Below are positions 3,581-26,032 of a DNA stretch of 32,000 nt, piece by piece; the first letter of the stretch is position 1, and the number at the start of each line of letters is the position of its first letter. A program made the position numbers and the translations under genes. The notes beneath the pieces are model-generated. The model made no database searches. It saw nothing but the letters and a program-made list of their open reading frames with translations, and was not told where the DNA came from. The DNA is taken from contig NZ_LT963434.1 in assembly GCF_900199515.1 (NCBI RefSeq), positions 483,272 to 515,271 of the forward strand, written 5' to 3'. This DNA comes from Massilicoli timonensis. Lineage in GTDB: Bacteria; Bacillota_I; Bacilli_A; Erysipelotrichales; Erysipelotrichaceae.

Positions 3581-4597
3581 TCAAAGCGCGCCCAGTTCGA
3601 TCGCCGCTTCGGCAATCTGCACCGCATTGAGCGCCGCTCCTTTTCGCAGCTGATCGCCGCAGCACCAAAGCGTTAAGGAATGCGTCTGATCATGCATGCT
3701 TGCACGCACTCTGCCGACATAGATGTCATCTTTGCCGCTTGCAAACAGCGGCATCGGATAGACTGCCTGCTCTTTTTCATCTAACAAGATGACCCCTTCA
3801 CTTTCCTTTAAGGCGGCTTTGGCCGCTTCCACACTGATCGCATCTTCAAAAAACAACGTGATTGCTTCACTGTGCGCCCGCATGATCGGCAGTCTGACAC
3901 AGGTGCAGGTAACACATAAGTTTGGCTCATGCAGGATCTTGCGTCCTTCCCTTTGCAGCTTCCACTCTTCGCTGCTGTATCCGCTCTCATCAAAATCACC
4001 GATCTGGGGAATCAGATTATAAGCGATCGGATAAGGAAATACCTGTATCGGCAATGCTTCCCCACGCAGTTCTGCCTGCATTTGCTTTTTCAATTCTTCC
4101 ATGCCCGCATGACCTGCCCCGGAAACCGCCTGATACGTGGAAACCACCATTGATTTGATCTTCGCTAAACGATGCAGCGGCGCTGCTGCCATGAGGGCAA
4201 TGATCGTCGTACAGTTAGGATTGGCGATCAGTCCCTGATGCTTTTTTATGTCCTCCCGATTGATCTGCGGTATGACCAAAGGCACCTGCGGCTTCAAACG
4301 ATATGCGCTGGAATTGTCGATGACCAGTGCACCGGCGCTGATCGCATATGGCAGAAAACGTTTGGCAGTTTTTTCGTCCACTGCCCCAAACACCAGATCC
4401 ATGCCCTGAAAACTATGAGCGTTCACTTCCTCTATCACGATGACTTCATCGCGAAACAATATCTTTTCACCGGCACTGCGCTTTGATGCGAGCAGCTTCA
4501 AAGAAGCGATCGGCAGATCACATTCCTCTAAGATCTGACAGATTTCTTTCCCCACAGCGCCGCTCGCACCGAGAATGGCAATATGATAGGCTCTCAT
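3581..4597 (-). CDS. asd: Aspartate-semialdehyde dehydrogenase
   Basis: 338 aa with an N-terminal ILGASGAVG Rossmann motif and the NPNCTTI active-site cysteine block. The SD AAGGAGG lies upstream of the ATG. Confidence 0.93.
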   Translation of the reverse strand: MRAYHIAILGASGAVGKEICQILEECDLPIASLKLLASKRSAGEKILFRDEVIVIEEVNAHSFQGMDLVFGAVDEKTAKRFLPYAISAGALVIDNSSAYRLKPQVPLVIPQINREDIKKHQGLIANPNCTTIIALMAAAPLHRLAKIKSMVVSTYQAVSGAGHAGMEELKKQMQAELRGEALPIQVFPYPIAYNLIPQIGDFDESGYSSEEWKLQREGRKILHEPNLCVTCTCVRLPIMRAHSEAITLFFEDAISVEAAKAALKESEGVILLDEKEQAVYPMPLFASGKDDIYVGRVRASMHDQTHSLTLWCCGDQLRKGAALNAVQIAEAAIELGAL

Positions 4598-4749
4598 CCT
4601 GATTCCTCCTTACTAGGATCATACCCTCGTTATCCTATTCTTCTCATCACCCTTATGTGACTGAAAAACGCTTGGCTAAGCGACAAAGCACCATACTTTC
4701 GCTTCGCTCATACGGAGAAAACACTGGCTGCTCATTTCATCTAAGCCAT

Positions 4750-4775
4750 TAAAAAAACCGGCATAAAGCCGGTTC
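4750..4775 (-). terminator. Rho-independent terminator of the PTS operon
   Basis: The minus strand reads AACCGGC-TTTAT-GCCGGTT followed by TTTTTTT, about 15 nt after the IID stop (4790-4792). Confidence 0.85.
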
Positions 4776-4789
4776 CCACTATCAGTGAT

Positions 4790-5632
4790 TTACATGATGC
4801 CGAAGAAAGAAGCCGCACATCCCAAGATCACCAGTCCGATCAAAATCGTCGTCGTTTTCACATTCTTGCCTAAAAGCCAATACATTATCCCAAACGCACA
4901 AGCCGGCAAGAAGCAAGGCATGATCTGATCGATATAGGTCTGCAATGATTCTGTTACTTCGCCCACTCCGACCGTCATCGTGATCTGCATGCTGACAGTC
5001 GTTGCGACCATTGCGCCGATGACCATCAAGCCGAGGATCGAAGCACATTTGGTAATCTTTTCGATCACCGCGCTGCTCGACATGTCCGCAAAGAACTTAA
5101 CCCCGTAATCAAATCCAAACTTCAAGCAGTAATAACGTGCCAAAAAGCCCGGAATATTGATGATCAGCAAGAACAGGATCGGTCCTAGAATGCTGCCTTC
5201 TTTTGCAAAAGAAACCCCGATTCCTACCGCAATGGTAAGCAGCGTGCCCCAGAAGAAGCTGTCGCCTAATCCTGCCATCGGTCCCATCAAGGAAGTCTTG
5301 ACGGCGCTGATCGACGTTGCGTCAAATTCCGGATCATTCGCATTTTGTTCTTCCATCGTCGCCGTAATACCTGCTAATAATGTAACGATATGCGGAGTGC
5401 AGGCCATAAATTCCATATGTCTTTGCAAAGCCGCCGCCATTTCCTCACTGCCTTCCGGATAAAGGCGTTTTAATACCGGGATCATCATATAGCAGTACAT
5501 CAAGTGCTGCTGGCGTTCGTAGTTCCATGCCGAATCCAGCGTACAGGAACGGGTAAACACTTTCCAGAAATCACGTTTTGTTAGTTTTGTATTCGCATTG
5601 ATCGTCTGCTTAGAATTCGTTGTCATCGTCAT
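4790..5632 (-). CDS. PTS mannose/fructose/sorbose-family EIID component
   Basis: The translation matches the EIID pattern (FWKVFTRS...WNYERQQ...). I place the start at the ATG at 5632 (MTMTTNSK), which is preceded by GGAGG (5640-5636). The track's longer N-terminus (to 5692) overlaps EIIC and has no SD. Confidence 0.9.
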   Translation of the reverse strand: MTMTTNSKQTINANTKLTKRDFWKVFTRSCTLDSAWNYERQQHLMYCYMMIPVLKRLYPEGSEEMAAALQRHMEFMACTPHIVTLLAGITATMEEQNANDPEFDATSISAVKTSLMGPMAGLGDSFFWGTLLTIAVGIGVSFAKEGSILGPILFLLIINIPGFLARYYCLKFGFDYGVKFFADMSSSAVIEKITKCASILGLMVIGAMVATTVSMQITMTVGVGEVTESLQTYIDQIMPCFLPACAFGIMYWLLGKNVKTTTILIGLVILGCAASFFGIM

Positions 5633-6389
5633 ACACCTCCATCGCTGCATCCTGCTTACGGTTGCCGCTGAAGAAATAAACGACCAAAGCAACCGCTAAA
5701 CCAAATAAAGCCACACCGAATACCGAAACGCCCAAATAAGCCGCCAGCAGGAATCCCACTAACAAGAACGCTGCCAGTTCTTTGGTCAAGATCATCCGTG
5801 CCAACATCGCAAAACCGATTGCCGGCAAGATACCTGCCGCAATATCCATACCATGCGTTACCCATTCCGGAATGAATGCCAATACATCTTTCACTGCATT
5901 CACACCCAAATAGAAAGAAACTGCCACCAGTAAAGACAATAATACTTTATTGCCGATGCCGGCAATGCGGCATACCCATTCGACCTTACGCGCTTTGCCT
6001 TCTTTCGCATAGCGATCGGCAATATGCGCAGCCCATGTCAAAATAAACATCATCTGTAAGTTATCCAGCAATAATACCAATGTAGCAACCGGAATCGCCA
6101 ACGCCACCGCTTCCCCGACGCCCGCACCCGATGCGATGACAAACGCCGTTCCGATGATCGAACCGGAGGTCATATCCGGCGGATTGCTTGCCCCGATCGG
6201 CACTGCCCCTAAAAATGCCAGTTCCAGCGCCGCTCCGACGATGATCCCGGTTTCCAGATCACCTAAAACAAGGCCGGTCAGCGTGGAAACGATGATCGGA
6301 CGATTCCACATCGTTGAGCCCATATAACTGTGCATATAGCCGAAGAATGCCACCAGTCCGATCAGTAAAGCCTGTAAACCTAAACTCAT
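5610..6389 (-). CDS. PTS mannose/fructose/sorbose-family EIIC component
   Basis: 259-aa polytopic membrane protein of EIIC-Man type, lying between EIIB and EIID and overlapping the EIID start by 23 nt. Confidence 0.9.
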   Translation of the reverse strand: MSLGLQALLIGLVAFFGYMHSYMGSTMWNRPIIVSTLTGLVLGDLETGIIVGAALELAFLGAVPIGASNPPDMTSGSIIGTAFVIASGAGVGEAVALAIPVATLVLLLDNLQMMFILTWAAHIADRYAKEGKARKVEWVCRIAGIGNKVLLSLLVAVSFYLGVNAVKDVLAFIPEWVTHGMDIAAGILPAIGFAMLARMILTKELAAFLLVGFLLAAYLGVSVFGVALFGLAVALVVYFFSGNRKQDAAMEVYDDDNEF

Positions 6390-21416: not shown

Positions 21417-22283
21417 TCATTCCTGCTTATATCGCTTCCACATATAACAGCCTGCCAAGGCGCTGATCAGCAGCAATCCCAGCCATAAACCTGAAACTGT
21501 CGTATCTCCGGTATCGATGCCATCTATTTGGCTGTTATCCGGTGTTGGATTCGGGGTGTTTGGCTCACTTGGCTCGATCACGATCGTATCATCGGGATCA
21601 TCCGGCTGCTCGCTCGGCTTTTCCCCGCTTTCTGTATCGATTCGCTTAAATGAAACATGAATGATATGATCCGCATCGACCGCTTTGAACAGACAAGTAT
21701 AGGTCGATTGTCCGATCGCCTCTGTGACTGCGTTTTCATCGATCGTCAGCGCTTCGATCACGTAGCCTTTTTTTGCCGTTATCACAAACTGCTGATCTTT
21801 TCCTTCCGCGACCTGTACGCTGCCGGAAGGATCGATCGATCCATTTACGCCTGCCTCTGCCTGGATCCGGTACATGTTCGGATTCTTCGCAGATACGATG
21901 ATCTCCGCTTGCAGATCCTCATAGTTCGCCGACTTGATCGTCAAACGAATCGTACCGATCACACCTTCTTGATCACTGTCATGCGCATTGATCTCGATCT
22001 TCAAATACTGCTCATTCAATAAGAAAGAAATACCGTCGTCTGCAAGATAACCTTCCTGAAGCGATATCTGATCTAATTCATACGTGCAGGCGCCGAGCGT
22101 CAAGATCGTGCCATCTTCCGCTGCTGATGGCTTTGGCAATAGTGTGGATAATGGAAAATAATACGTTTGTGCTTTTTGATTATAGATCTGCAAAGCACCG
22201 GAGCTGGCTTCCATGCCTGCCGTTTGTGGATCGGCTTTGGTAATGGTGATCGATCCTTTTCCCGTATCCGGATCCAGTCGATA
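21417..22283 (-). pseudogene. C-terminal continuation of the surface adhesin (repeat domains, Pro/Asp-rich linker, TM anchor), cut off by an upstream in-frame TAG
   Basis: It is in the same reading frame as 22284-24599 (both frames have start coordinates of 2 modulo 3). The frame is open all the way from the TAG. It has no SD and no signal peptide of its own. It ends with ...GIDTGDTT, a hydrophobic segment, then KRYKQE. Confidence 0.75.
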
Positions 22284-24599
22284 CTACTTGGCGTCGTTTC
22301 CCTGCAAGGCATAATGAATCTGTACTTCTTTTTTTGCGGCATCGGCGTTTGCATCCTCGATCATGCCGGCCGCCGTTACCGTCACATCATCCCCTTTTAT
22401 GATCATGGACTGCTGCAATGCAGCTTTGACAGCCACTTCCTTTTTACCGTTATAGGCGCGGTCTTTGATTTCTACACTGCTTGGGTCCACGCTGATCGGC
22501 TTCGGCGTTACCATGACCGTTACCGTACCGCTGGCAGAAGCATAGCTGTTATCGGGATCACCGCTTATTTCATGCTCCGGCACCGTTACGATCAAATGCG
22601 CTTCCCCGACACCGACAAATTCAAACCGGTTCCCATCATCCGACAACTTCACAACGCTCTCATCATCAGATGTCCATACCAGACCGCTTGTGATCGGAAG
22701 GATCGTATCCGTATTGTTTTGCTGCACCTTCACACTGACCTGCAGATCGGCGATCGCTTTAGTATTGCCATAAACATCTTGTATCTGATCCTCATTTATG
22801 ATTACCGTTGCCGGTTGATACTTCACGACATGAATTTCGGTTTTACCGCTTTTTACGCTCTCAAAGTTCGGATCATTTTGCACATAGCTCCAATACAGCG
22901 TCGTATTCTCACCGACTTTCTTGTTTGCCAAGGAAGTATCACTTGCCTGTATACTGTGCGTTTCATCCAGATACCATGTCAGCGTACCGTTTTTTAAGGC
23001 GGTCTGATCGACCGGAAGCATACTGGAAACCTTTGCTTCCGGCAGTTTTTCTAATAACCGGTCTTCTCCTTGCTTGATCGACCATTTCTCCGGCAGGGTA
23101 AGCGTAAATTTTGCCGGGGCGATCGAGAACGTATGCACATACTCGCTTGGTGCGATCAGATTGCCATTGTTTGCAGCAGATGCCGTTAGTTTTGCCGTTT
23201 GATCGCCGGCATTGATATTGTTTTGATAGGAAAGCACATAATCTTTGTCTGTCCCCTCATAAAAGGATTGCCGATATCCCCATAACGTCATAGCAACGCT
23301 GATCTGCGGCTTTTTCTCAGTGCCATCGTAAATAAGATGATCCATACCGCTTACTTGTACCAAAGCATCTTCTAAAGGAAGCTGTACGGCAGCCGGCTGC
23401 GTTCCACTTAATGAACCTGTACCGGCAGTATCCTGCAAGCCGCCTAATAACCGCAACAAAGAGGCATCCACATAGTCGTTTCCATCACTGCCTGTGATGA
23501 TCCCATTGCCCAGTGTGATCATTCCATTATTGGTCAAGACATTGCCCGCTGCCATGGTCAAAGAGGCAGAACGATCATTGCGATCATTCATGACGATGCG
23601 CAAAGTCGCACCTTCCGCAACCGTCAGCGGATAGTCGATGATCGGATCTCCCCATACTTGAATATTAGCGACGGAATCATTTAGCACAACGGTTCCATCT
23701 GCTGTTACATACGCTGAATTCTCATTTCCTTCATAACTGATGAAAATACCATCCCAATTAGCGGCATCGCGATTGGCGCCGATTCCCTTTGGCGCAATGA
23801 TGACCGCATTGCCGTTTGTTCCGGTTGAAAAGGCGCCGTGGTAATTCTCACTGTCCCCGCCGGTAATACGGGCACCGCCGCCGATGCTGACGGGGTTCCC
23901 GTTAGCATAAACGACACCGCCGCTCACTTCGACCATACCCGTATAAGCACAGTTTTGTCCAGCCCCAATACCAGCGCCATTGCTTCCGCCGACAGCGCTT
24001 ACCTGTCCACCGCGAATCGTAATATTGCCGCTGACATCGGAAATGCCGGCATAGTATCCGCCGCCGATCCCGGCTCCGCCCTGTGAACCGCTTGCACTGA
24101 CATGACCGCTTTCAATGATGATGTCGCCGAAATTCACATTGCCGATCCCATAGCCGCCGCCAATGCCCGCAGCGCCCCTGCCAAGCGTTGTACTTCCCGC
24201 AGCTGCTATCAAAGCGCCATCTCCCTTGATCGTCAGACGCGCACCTTCTTCTACCCAGATTGCAGGATGATTATTCGCTCCATACAGTTCATTGTCGCCT
24301 TCCAAAATCAGAGTAACCTCAGCACCGCTTCGCACATTCATCGCTGATGAAGTACCACCGGCATCAATGCTCACATCACGAAGGGTAATCGTATGATTGC
24401 CGCTCGCGACATTGACATGATGTCCGCCAAAATAACCTGATGTTTGCCCGGTAATGACATGACTTCCGGCATTATTCGCATTTAACTCGACATCGTCATG
24501 ACCGATGTCATAGTCCGCCGCATGTGCTTTTTCAACAAACGTCGGCAATGTCAGAAAACACGCAAGCAGAATCGTCGCAATCCGATAAATTCTCTTCAT
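22284..24599 (-). CDS. Large secreted/cell-surface adhesin-like protein, N-terminal 771 aa (beta-helix Gly-rich repeats plus Ig/MBG-like repeats), ending at a premature TAG
   Basis: The signal peptide MKRIYRIATILLACFLTLPTFVEKAHA is followed by cleavage before AD. It carries repeated GAAGIGGGYG / GGAGIGGGYY / GAGIGAGQN motifs typical of parallel beta-helix passengers, followed by YDGT/YNGK-type repeat domains. I chose the ATG at 24599 (AAGGAGAG upstream). The track start at 24671 adds 24 codons that are not signal-like. Confidence 0.8.
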   Translation of the reverse strand: MKRIYRIATILLACFLTLPTFVEKAHAADYDIGHDDVELNANNAGSHVITGQTSGYFGGHHVNVASGNHTITLRDVSIDAGGTSSAMNVRSGAEVTLILEGDNELYGANNHPAIWVEEGARLTIKGDGALIAAAGSTTLGRGAAGIGGGYGIGNVNFGDIIIESGHVSASGSQGGAGIGGGYYAGISDVSGNITIRGGQVSAVGGSNGAGIGAGQNCAYTGMVEVSGGVVYANGNPVSIGGGARITGGDSENYHGAFSTGTNGNAVIIAPKGIGANRDAANWDGIFISYEGNENSAYVTADGTVVLNDSVANIQVWGDPIIDYPLTVAEGATLRIVMNDRNDRSASLTMAAGNVLTNNGMITLGNGIITGSDGNDYVDASLLRLLGGLQDTAGTGSLSGTQPAAVQLPLEDALVQVSGMDHLIYDGTEKKPQISVAMTLWGYRQSFYEGTDKDYVLSYQNNINAGDQTAKLTASAANNGNLIAPSEYVHTFSIAPAKFTLTLPEKWSIKQGEDRLLEKLPEAKVSSMLPVDQTALKNGTLTWYLDETHSIQASDTSLANKKVGENTTLYWSYVQNDPNFESVKSGKTEIHVVKYQPATVIINEDQIQDVYGNTKAIADLQVSVKVQQNNTDTILPITSGLVWTSDDESVVKLSDDGNRFEFVGVGEAHLIVTVPEHEISGDPDNSYASASGTVTVMVTPKPISVDPSSVEIKDRAYNGKKEVAVKAALQQSMIIKGDDVTVTAAGMIEDANADAAKKEVQIHYALQGNDAK

Positions 24600-24767
24600 A
24601 AAACTTCCTACTCTCCTTTCTCTCATATTGCTGCACCTTGCTTTGAAAAGACATGCGCCTAGAGGATGCACATGTTCTTTTCGCTATACTATATTCACAA
24701 GCAGTCCTAAATTCGCACTTGCATGAAAGAAAGCATCACAAGATGCAGTATGACTTCTTTCTGTTTT

Positions 24768-24800
24768 ATTATACCCCCCCCCCCCGTATCAAAAATGCAA
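24768..24800 (-). promoter_or_regulatory. Putative adhesin promoter with the G12 tract in its spacer
   Basis: The minus strand reads TTGCAT TTTTGATAC G12 TATAAT. A perfect -10 lies at 24773-24768. The -35 candidates are TTGCAT (24800-24795, 21-nt spacer) and TTGATA (24792-24787, 13-nt spacer). Confidence 0.5.
24774..24785. repeat. Homopolymeric C12 (G12 on the minus strand) tract
   Basis: Counted directly: ata-ccccccc/ccccc-gtatc gives 12 C residues at 24774-24785. Confidence 0.95.
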
Positions 24801-24803
24801 GCA

Positions 24804-24833
24804 TAAAAAAAGAGATGTTGTCTCCAACATCTC
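24804..24833 (-). terminator. Rho-independent terminator after the NlpC/P60 hydrolase gene
   Basis: The minus strand reads GAGATGTTG-GAGA-CAACATCTC followed by TTTTTTT, about 20 nt after the stop at 24853-24855. Confidence 0.8.
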
Positions 24834-24852
24834 CGTTCTATTCTTGTTTTTC

Positions 24853-25980
24853 TTAATGTACGCGGATAAATACCGGACCGGTTCCGACAAACGCAGAAGC
24901 AACTACCGTATTATTGCCCTGCCAGCCGCCGTGAACAGCACGCCCACCGCCGATATAAACGGCTACATGCGGTACTCCGACACCTGCATCAGCGTAATAG
25001 ATCACATCTCCCGGTTGCGCCTCAGAAGCGGAAACGATCGTTCCCAGCGACATATAGCCTGCCGGCCAGCCATGATAATAAATTCCGGCTGCTGCCAACG
25101 CATTGCTTACCAACCAAGTACAATCCTGTTTACGGCCGACCTGCGCCAATGCCGCATTCGCAATATTGCCGTCCGCGGCAATATTTACCGCTTCATAGTT
25201 ATAATTGGTCGTCGCTTTTTTCTGTTCTGTGATCTTTGTCGCTACTCCATAACTGTCAAAGCTATAGCCTTCAAATTCACGATCACCGTACATCATGCCT
25301 TTTTCATTGAAATAATACTTATTGCCGTCGATATCCTGCCAGCCGGTCAAATAAACACCGGTTTCCGTATAGTAGTATTTCTCGCCTTGATACCAGTGCC
25401 AGCCGACAATGATCGTACCATTCTCTTGGAACGTATAAGTCGTACCGTCAATATCCACTTCACCGACAGCCATAGAACCGTCTTCTTTGAAATAGTATTT
25501 GCTGCCGTCCAATTCCTGCCAGCCCAGCAGTGCGACTCCTTCTTCATTGAAGTAATATTTCTGACCGTCAATTTCCTGCCAGCCAGTCTGCGCATAGCCA
25601 TAATTGTTGTAATACATCGTATGGTCTTCCTGCCATCCTTGCAGCAATCTTCCGTCTTTTTGGAAATTGTATGTCTCTCCATCAACTTCCTGTTCGCCGG
25701 TTACCATCTTACCGGATTTTTTGAAATAATAGCGGCCTTCGTCCAGTTCCAGCCATCCGGTTACCGGATTTCCTTTTTTATTCAGATAATATGTAGCGTC
25801 ATCTAATTTCAACCAACCGATGACTTTCTCGTTATCTTTGATGTAGTAGCGTTCTTCTTTCGTACCGTGCCATCCTTCTTCCGAGCTGGAATTCGCATAG
25901 ATCACACTTCCGATACATGCACACACAAGAATACTAACTAACGTGATTAACCATTTATTCGCATGTCTGACTAAGTTCAT
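24853..25980 (-). CDS. Cell-wall hydrolase with signal/TM segment, about 10 cell-wall-binding (choline-binding-type) repeats and a C-terminal NlpC/P60 domain
   Basis: It has GW..xDGxxYYFxxxGxxxxG repeats. The C-terminal domain carries the catalytic Cys context (QDCTWLVSNALAAAGI) and His context (PHVAVYIGGGRAVHGG). The ATG at 25980 follows GAGGTG, and the track's 50 upstream codons have no support. Confidence 0.88.
   Translation of the reverse strand: MNLVRHANKWLITLVSILVCACIGSVIYANSSSEEGWHGTKEERYYIKDNEKVIGWLKLDDATYYLNKKGNPVTGWLELDEGRYYFKKSGKMVTGEQEVDGETYNFQKDGRLLQGWQEDHTMYYNNYGYAQTGWQEIDGQKYYFNEEGVALLGWQELDGSKYYFKEDGSMAVGEVDIDGTTYTFQENGTIIVGWHWYQGEKYYYTETGVYLTGWQDIDGNKYYFNEKGMMYGDREFEGYSFDSYGVATKITEQKKATTNYNYEAVNIAADGNIANAALAQVGRKQDCTWLVSNALAAAGIYYHGWPAGYMSLGTIVSASEAQPGDVIYYADAGVGVPHVAVYIGGGRAVHGGWQGNNTVVASAFVGTGPVFIRVH
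25237..25875 (-). repeat. Tandem array of roughly 60-bp (18-20 aa) coding repeats (cell-wall-binding repeats)
   Basis: There are about 10-11 consecutive units such as GWLKLDDATYYLNKKGNPVT, GWLELDEGRYYFKKSGKMVT and GWQEIDGQKYYFNEEGVALL. Confidence 0.85.
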
Positions 25981-26032
25981 AAATGCACCTCGTTTCGTTT
26001 TTTTGTTTGTGTCATCCCCACATACAACCCTA

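Follow-up and report, generated by a model that had tools for sequence, protein, structure and literature searches.

Phase variation by repeat slippage is textbook knowledge for pathogens, and attention in gut commensals has gone mainly to invertible promoters. Promoters of the sigma-70 type lose activity when the spacing between their -35 and -10 hexamers falls outside 16-18 nt. The classical example of an outer-surface protein switched by spacer length is Neisseria meningitidis porA, in which the usual tract lengths lie at the optimum or within 1-2 nt of it. In Mycoplasma hyorhinis, which belongs to a lineage related to Bacillota/Erysipelotrichia, a poly-A tract occupies the -35/-10 spacer of the vlp genes, a multigene lipoprotein family. 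In Bordetella pertussis fim, the length of a poly-C tract upstream of the -10 sets expression; in both fim and N. meningitidis opc, the tract stands in place of the -35 or overlaps it, and probably acts through a regulator or through the distance to an activator.

In Treponema pallidum, a poly-G tract lies between the -35 and -10 of tp0126, where transcription is optimal at 17 nt, and the poly-G promoters of tprE/G/J/L are permissive only with about eight or fewer G's; tract lengths of 7-11 coexist within isolates, and the system is supported by 5'RACE, fragment-length analysis of the tracts and GFP reporters (PMC7864442). Passages of the same report present porA as having poly-G in its -35/-10 spacer, with expression graded by tract length, and opc as having a poly-C tract upstream of the -10 whose length sets expression (PMC7864442). 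The Vlp system of M. hyorhinis is cited in a passage of PMC11868660. For Campylobacter and Helicobacter, passages of two reports describe poly-G 'phasomes': in a gut organism, surface structures are controlled by hypermutable G/C tracts of 8-14 nt (PMC8355987, PMC6321876).

The locus described here lies in a 32,000-nt stretch of the Massilicoli timonensis genome, the whole of which was analyzed and is called the window below. We hold with moderate confidence that a G tract in this stretch is the variable spacer of a sigma-A-type promoter and acts as a slipped-strand on/off switch for a surface protein. Four things are direct observations: the anatomy of the site, the hypervariability of the tract between near-identical strains, the homology of the promoter to others and the surface character of the gene product. 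As in tp0126 and the tpr genes, a poly-G tract is found in the promoter of a surface-protein gene, and the predicted optimum is also G8. T. pallidum is a spirochaete pathogen, however, whereas M. timonensis is a gut commensal of the Bacillota in which the switch is predicted from sequence, and its modal length of G12 is much further from the optimum. Likewise, in contrast to Gram-negative porA, the usual M. timonensis lengths are 2-6 nt longer than the predicted optimum. The locus shares with vlp a homopolymer in the spacer of a surface-protein promoter, but the repeat is poly-G rather than poly-A, and there is one locus in the 32-kb window rather than a multigene family.

Two other types of switch fit less well. 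Like opc and fim, the locus has a G/C homopolymer immediately upstream of its -10; the homologue of the -35 lies 9 nt upstream of the tract, so a tract that sets the distance to an activator, as in the opc/fim type, is not what is found. The Campylobacter and Helicobacter tracts are mostly intragenic frameshift switches, whereas the M. timonensis switch would be transcriptional. Frameshift switching inside the gene was rejected, as no indels occur in 2.7 kb of coding sequence from nine strains, and the locus is therefore not of the intragenic Campylobacter type. The repeat lies between the -35 and -10 of a promoter that is itself inferred from sequence, which supports the locus as a candidate member of the porA/tp0126/vlp type, a known mechanism in an unusual host group. 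A literature search, too limited to prove novelty, found no poly-G or other homopolymer spacer switch described in Erysipelotrichaceae or other gut Bacillota commensals.

Promoter anatomy and tract length

The features of the locus, in the direction of transcription, are as follows.
24853..25980, minus strand: upstream gene for an NlpC/P60 hydrolase with choline-binding repeats (probable true start ATG 25980, 375 aa)
24804..24834, minus strand: intrinsic terminator of the NlpC/P60 gene, with a 10-bp stem (24834-24811) followed by T7, from a terminator scan
24800-24768, minus strand: the whole putative promoter, TTGCAT-TTTTGATAC-G12-TATAAT, by direct reading
24795..24800, minus strand: probable -35 hexamer TTGCAT, matching TTGACA at 4/6 positions; TTGTAT in some strains
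24786..24794, minus strand: fixed 9-nt part of the spacer, TTTTGATAC (TTTAGACAC in other strains); its last six letters, TGATAC, are the same in homologous promoters
24787-24792, minus strand: alternative -35-like hexamer, TTGATA/TAGACA, inside the fixed part of the spacer
24774..24785, minus strand: G12 homopolymer (C12 on the plus strand), the hypervariable part of the spacer, G4-G14 in 32 assemblies
24768..24773, minus strand: -10 hexamer TATAAT, a perfect consensus abutting the G tract
24600..24767, minus strand: leader of 168 nt from the -10 to the ATG, with ribosome-binding site GAAAGGAGAG at about 24611-24620
21417..24599, minus strand: surface-protein gene, a frame of 1060 codons split here into ORFs of 771 and 265 aa (WP_102267211.1, 'YDG domain-containing protein')
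22284-22286, minus strand: in-frame TAG at codon 772, which is CAG in intact alleles, inside the YDG domain and beside the invariant Y773

Most of this anatomy had been foreseen. The original prediction placed G12 in a promoter spacer, abutting TATAAT and giving spacers of 21 nt from TTGCAT and 13 nt from TTGATA, and a re-reading of the sequence agrees; its arithmetic, by which G8 or G16 would bring the spacing to 17 nt, is correct. The tract had been noted as the longest G/C homopolymer in the window and is in fact the sole G/C run of at least 6 nt in the 32 kb, in which no A/T run reaches 8 nt and about 0.004 C12 runs are expected from base composition. A terminator just upstream was found where one had been proposed, and the distance of about 170 nt to the gene start comes to 168 nt from TATAAT to the ATG at 24599. 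The claim of an adhesin-like gene of about 1060 codons holds for the length of the frame and for the surface nature of the product, but the frame is broken by the TAG at codon 772.

Only 3 nt separate the end of the terminator from the -35 hexamer, and the terminator is conserved throughout the strains, a T7/T8 variant being the one difference. TATAAT is likewise kept everywhere, apart from two assemblies that probably contain errors beside the tract. None of 100 shuffled sequences matches G8-TATAAT with at most one mismatch, and a promoter scan of the minus strand from the terminator to the ATG found, at its threshold, no other sigma-70-like site. The weakness (4/6) and polymorphism of the -35 hexamer speak against a switch. 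Among the window and L001-L168, each of the -35-like hexamers occurs in two forms (TTGCAT/TTGTAT and TTGATA/TAGACA), and TAGACA matches TTGACA at 5/6 positions. Tracts are a little longer in the TAGACA strains (mean 11.9 against 11.5, or 12.6 with the G4 strain left out), a difference that is not significant (p = 0.13).

In the leader, the minimum-energy fold pairs a CUUUCUUUC stretch with the Shine-Dalgarno region GAAAGGAGAG, an apparent anti-SD pairing, and a small hairpin followed by a U-rich run is present at 24746-24733. The stability of the fold is not significantly higher than that of shuffled sequences (z = -1.6), and a search of the leader against Rfam returned no credible family, with one chance-level match (E = 0.71).

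Tract length was compared in contigs encoding exactly the neighboring proteins, together with one pattern scan of metagenomes. With duplicates removed, these yielded 31 further independent assemblies of the locus (32 including the window), mostly from human gut metagenomes of different studies; the locus-specific gapped pattern matched one metagenomic contig, with G11T, which is the record of L137. The tract is G12 in eleven assemblies (the mode, which includes the window), G11 in seven, G14 in five, G13 in four and G10 in three, with single cases of G9 (L006) and G4. Tracts of 11-13 thus make up 22/32. The surrounding DNA diverges by at most 1.6% among strains, and a 4.6-kb alignment of 24 strains contains just two other indels, each of 1 nt, in an A7 and a T7 run.

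Tract length also varies where the flanking DNA does not. Over 3.1-4.6 kb, three pairs of contigs show zero SNPs yet different tracts, by 1-7 nt: L006 (G9) and L149 (G12), L002 (G12) and L164 (G11), and L137 (G11T) and L141 (G4). The window (G12) is one SNP from L006 (G9), and the tract differs in 7 of 12 pairs separated by at most two SNPs. SNP distance and tract-length difference are uncorrelated (Spearman rho = -0.09). Such hypervariability among close relatives is characteristic of promoter-spacer switches. An invariant tract would have spoken against the original prediction; instead there are seven length classes in 32 assemblies, with differences between strains whose flanks are identical. 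The predicted spacer phase switch is strengthened in two respects, the hypervariability of the tract and its spacer position, to which homologous promoters and a survey of similar sites (below) point. On a third point, the occurrence of permissive lengths, one strain (G9) has a spacer of 16-18 nt.

Under the proposed switch, a promoter consisting of a -35 (TTGCAT), 9 fixed nt, G(n) and a -10 (TATAAT) would drive a secreted beta-helix/Ig-like/YDG surface protein. Slipped-strand mispairing at replication would add or remove G's, shifting the spacing between the weak -35 and the perfect -10. With about 8 G's (7-9), the hexamers would stand 16-18 nt apart and the promoter would fire; with 10-14 (G12 and 21 nt in the window), they would be misaligned and transcription would be off or very low, and G4 would give 13 nt. 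The bulk of a population would be silent, with rare ON cells arising continuously. Since predicted OFF lengths predominate and slippage would yield such rare ON cells, the surface-protein gene would behave as a contingency locus. For this scheme, we infer which hexamers are used, where transcription starts, that expression depends on tract length, that the change is reversible and that it brings a selective benefit.

The consensus lengths set limits on this scheme. L006 (G9, 18 nt) is the only strain with a predicted spacer within 16-18 nt, and the other 31 have spacers of 13 nt (G4) or 19-23 nt. Neither G7 nor G8 was seen among the 32 consensus assemblies, each of which gives the majority state only, and G9 was seen once. 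The modal G12 is three to four steps from the permissive range, so the locus is not a one-step toggle. Since G12 lies midway between G8, which would suit TTGCAT, and G16, which would suit TTGATA/TAGACA, it would be the deepest OFF state. The clustering of tracts at 11-13 needs either mutational equilibrium or selection as an explanation. The G12 mode can be read in three ways, one being that selection usually acts against expression in the gut populations sampled.

The surface-protein gene

The product of the gene carries a signal peptide and, at its C-terminus, a hydrophobic anchor that has a basic tail; it also contains a YDG domain (E = 2.9e-8), along with weak beta-helix repeats. In an AlphaFold model, for which 30 homologues were used, the fold is all-beta (mean pLDDT 82), with an array of Ig-like domains that matches S-layer, cadherin-type and other elongated surface proteins. 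Homologues with 34-46% identity carry SLH, CW_binding_2, Big_2 or Listeria-Bacteroides repeat domains, and a sequence search of the PDB with the protein gave no match. Signal peptide, anchor, YDG domain, all-beta Ig-like model and homologue domains together make 'surface protein' a well-supported description, and the protein may be an 'adhesin'. A surface product of this kind is typical of contingency loci.

The gene has been disrupted seven times independently, in 13/32 strains. Six of the disruptions are nonsense codons, at positions 52, 272 (GGA>TGA), 442, 735 (AAA>TAA), 772 (CAG>TAG) and 844, and the seventh is a mobile-element insertion after codon ~172. Recoding of TAG was rejected, since the codon is CAG wherever the allele is intact and the remaining disruptions involve TGA, TAA or different positions. 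L006, the only G9 strain, also carries the TAG allele. The contigs grouped with these disruptions are the window, L001, L003, L136, L147, L148, L162, L166 and L168. In L162 (~4396-6128), homology to the window ends after codon ~172 and the foreign DNA encodes a DUF3991/Toprim/AAA primase-like protein, which is typical of a conjugative or integrative element.

Alternatively, though in our judgment this is unlikely, the promoter may be silenced and decaying: a G-rich segment of 8-9 nt would have become a pure G run and overexpanded, lengths would drift neutrally among OFF states, and the gene would be in the course of being lost, with no adaptive reversible switching. The 19-23 nt spacers of nearly all consensus lengths are consistent with such a course, as are the seven disruptions, the strain that has collapsed to a locked G4 and the degeneration of the -35 from TTGACA in homologues to TTGCAT/TTGTAT. 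Purifying selection, however, still acts on the protein sequence: its first 705 codons have a pN/pS of 0.20, and the same measure gives 0.02 for the neighboring NlpC/P60 and FakA genes and 0.17 for YaaA. In most strains, the frame is intact over the part seen, and TATAAT and the rest of the promoter are conserved, the two assemblies with probable errors apart. No two disruptions are alike and all are recent, as would be the case for a gene that is by turns useful and costly, and unbounded neutral drift would not hold 22/32 tracts at 11-13.

Long-term purifying selection combined with many recent knock-outs is what one would expect if the gene were of use under some conditions and carried a cost under others. 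This selection pattern favors, without proving, a contingency locus over simple decay. Taken with the hypermutability of the tract, the recurrent inactivation of the gene suggests strong, fluctuating selection on the surface protein, for example by IgA, phage or changes of niche.

Related promoters

Homologous promoters bear on which hexamer serves as the -35. In L153, L154 and L156, from a gut organism, genes for proteins 40-42% identical to the surface protein in amino acid sequence are preceded by TTGACA-AAGTGATAC-GGAAGGGG-TATTAT, with a spacer of 17 nt, or TTGACA-AAGTGATAC-GGGAGGGGG-TATTAT, with a spacer of 18 nt. These promoters and that of the window share one layout: a -35, 9 nt ending in TGATAC, a G-rich block and a -10. 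The block is interrupted and 8-9 nt long in all three, so the M. timonensis tract looks like a purified and expanded form of it. Between L153 (~1925-1960) and L156 (~1425-1460), the interrupted block already differs by one base. The upstream regions of four other homologues (L152, L155, L157 and L158) are unrelated and contain no G tract.

Similar sites in other genomes were surveyed with the pattern G10TATAAT, one genome per species, in a scan that is biased by design to tracts of at least 10. It returned at least 120 loci, of which 118 sites had full upstream sequence. Among the matches listed, 74 of these 118 have a hexamer that equals TTGACA at 5/6 or more positions and lies 4-10 nt upstream of the tract, where background positions predict about six. 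The position peaks at 9 nt, with 29 sites, 25 of them perfect TTGACA, among the same listed matches. None of those listed has a -35-like hexamer 1 nt upstream of the tract. G tracts that abut TATAAT are thus, overwhelmingly, true promoter spacers as judged from their layout, and the peak at 9 nt means that the usual design corresponds to TTGCAT-N9 here rather than TTGATA-N1. Together with the 17-18 nt spacers of the homologous promoters, the survey favors TTGCAT, not TTGATA, as the -35 and G8, with 17-nt spacing, as the predicted optimum.

The same evidence bears on another geometry, which seems to us distinctly improbable, in which the tract sets the distance from the -10 to an activator site or an UP-like T-rich element; G12 (±1) would then be the expressing length and the nonsense alleles the route to the off state. 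With a sharp mode at G12, 22/32 tracts at 11-13, weak and polymorphic -35 candidates, and T7 plus AT-rich DNA at about -50 to -40 when n = 12, such an arrangement is conceivable, and frequent loss-of-function alleles would be sensible if the promoter were ON. The homologous promoters, though, show a perfect TTGACA in exactly the matching place, spaced 17-18 nt from the -10, and among the matches listed for the 118 similar sites, the -35 sits where about 8 G's give 17 nt. Moreover, there is no TG extended -10 to offset a missing -35, and no activator or regulator site was identified.

Returning to the spacer switch, the survey also indicates what kind of gene such promoters serve. Among the matches listed, 51 of 78 first ORFs downstream of the site look secreted; for control ORFs taken from these loci, the figure is 69 of 353 (odds ratio 7.8). 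Some MAGs contain three or four such promoters each, upstream of paralogous genes with conserved leaders. Recurrence of G≥10-TATAAT within a genome, upstream of secreted paralogues, was noted in uncultured gut 'Bacilli' and Oscillospiraceae MAGs (L011-L130), for example in the groups L026/L052/L063/L081, L038/L060/L065, L017/L057/L106/L114 and L045/L051/L116. The recurrent paralogues share conserved N-termini, one of which reads ...IGYAAF.T.L.INGT..., and Pfam recognized essentially nothing in four downstream proteins from the survey.

It is quite possible, if not quite probable, that the M. timonensis locus belongs to a large and apparently undescribed class of sigma-A promoters of secreted-protein genes with the design TTGACA-N(~9)-G(n)-TATAAT, often in paralogous families with conserved leaders. 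The class would span many uncultured gut Bacillota ('Bacilli' MAGs, Oscillospiraceae and Lachnospiraceae) and also Treponema and Saccharibacteria. In M. timonensis, G12 would keep the population in the deepest OFF state, and the loss-of-function alleles would silence the gene at a second level. Gut commensals would then have, in poly-G spacer switches, a general means of varying their surface in addition to invertible promoters. The survey suggests that the same promoter design may be common in uncultured gut Bacillota; in that case, the reading of metagenome assemblies would be affected, since tract length would be an expression state, as would the cataloguing of commensal surface antigens. 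The present locus is a specific case, readily open to testing, in an Erysipelotrichaceae species of the human gut that has received little study.

Homopolymer noise and neighboring genes

Substitutions directly beside the tract occur in L131/L137 (G11T), L139/L165 (G14-CATAAC) and L166 (G14A), and the L010 contig stops at the tract. They are probably homopolymer sequencing or assembly noise, or else real interruptions that would stabilize the tract. Because they look like noise, length differences of ±1 should not be over-read, and part of them may be technical. Even so, it is highly improbable that a stable tract underlies all of the length differences as sequencing or assembly errors of a long G homopolymer: Illumina is error-prone at long G runs, and the irregularities in L131, L139, L166 and L010 are of that kind, but the range is 4-14 rather than ±1, eleven assemblies made in different studies and with different assemblers all have 12, contigs of the same haplotype have equal lengths (L147/L148 and L004/L135), and in these contigs the A7 and T7 runs hardly vary. 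That most of the length variation is real is supported by differences of 2-8 nt and by the agreement within same-haplotype pairs.

Other neighbors of the locus in the window are YaaA, FakA, Asp23, an SPFH/NfeD pair and RecG. Phase variation of the NlpC/P60 gene, an idea arising from calls of 425 versus 375 aa, was rejected, as an A7/A8 polymorphism in its 5'UTR explains the calls. This polymorphism lies at 25998-26004 (minus strand), about 17 nt upstream of the probable ATG at 25980, and has two alleles only, which follow the strain genealogy.
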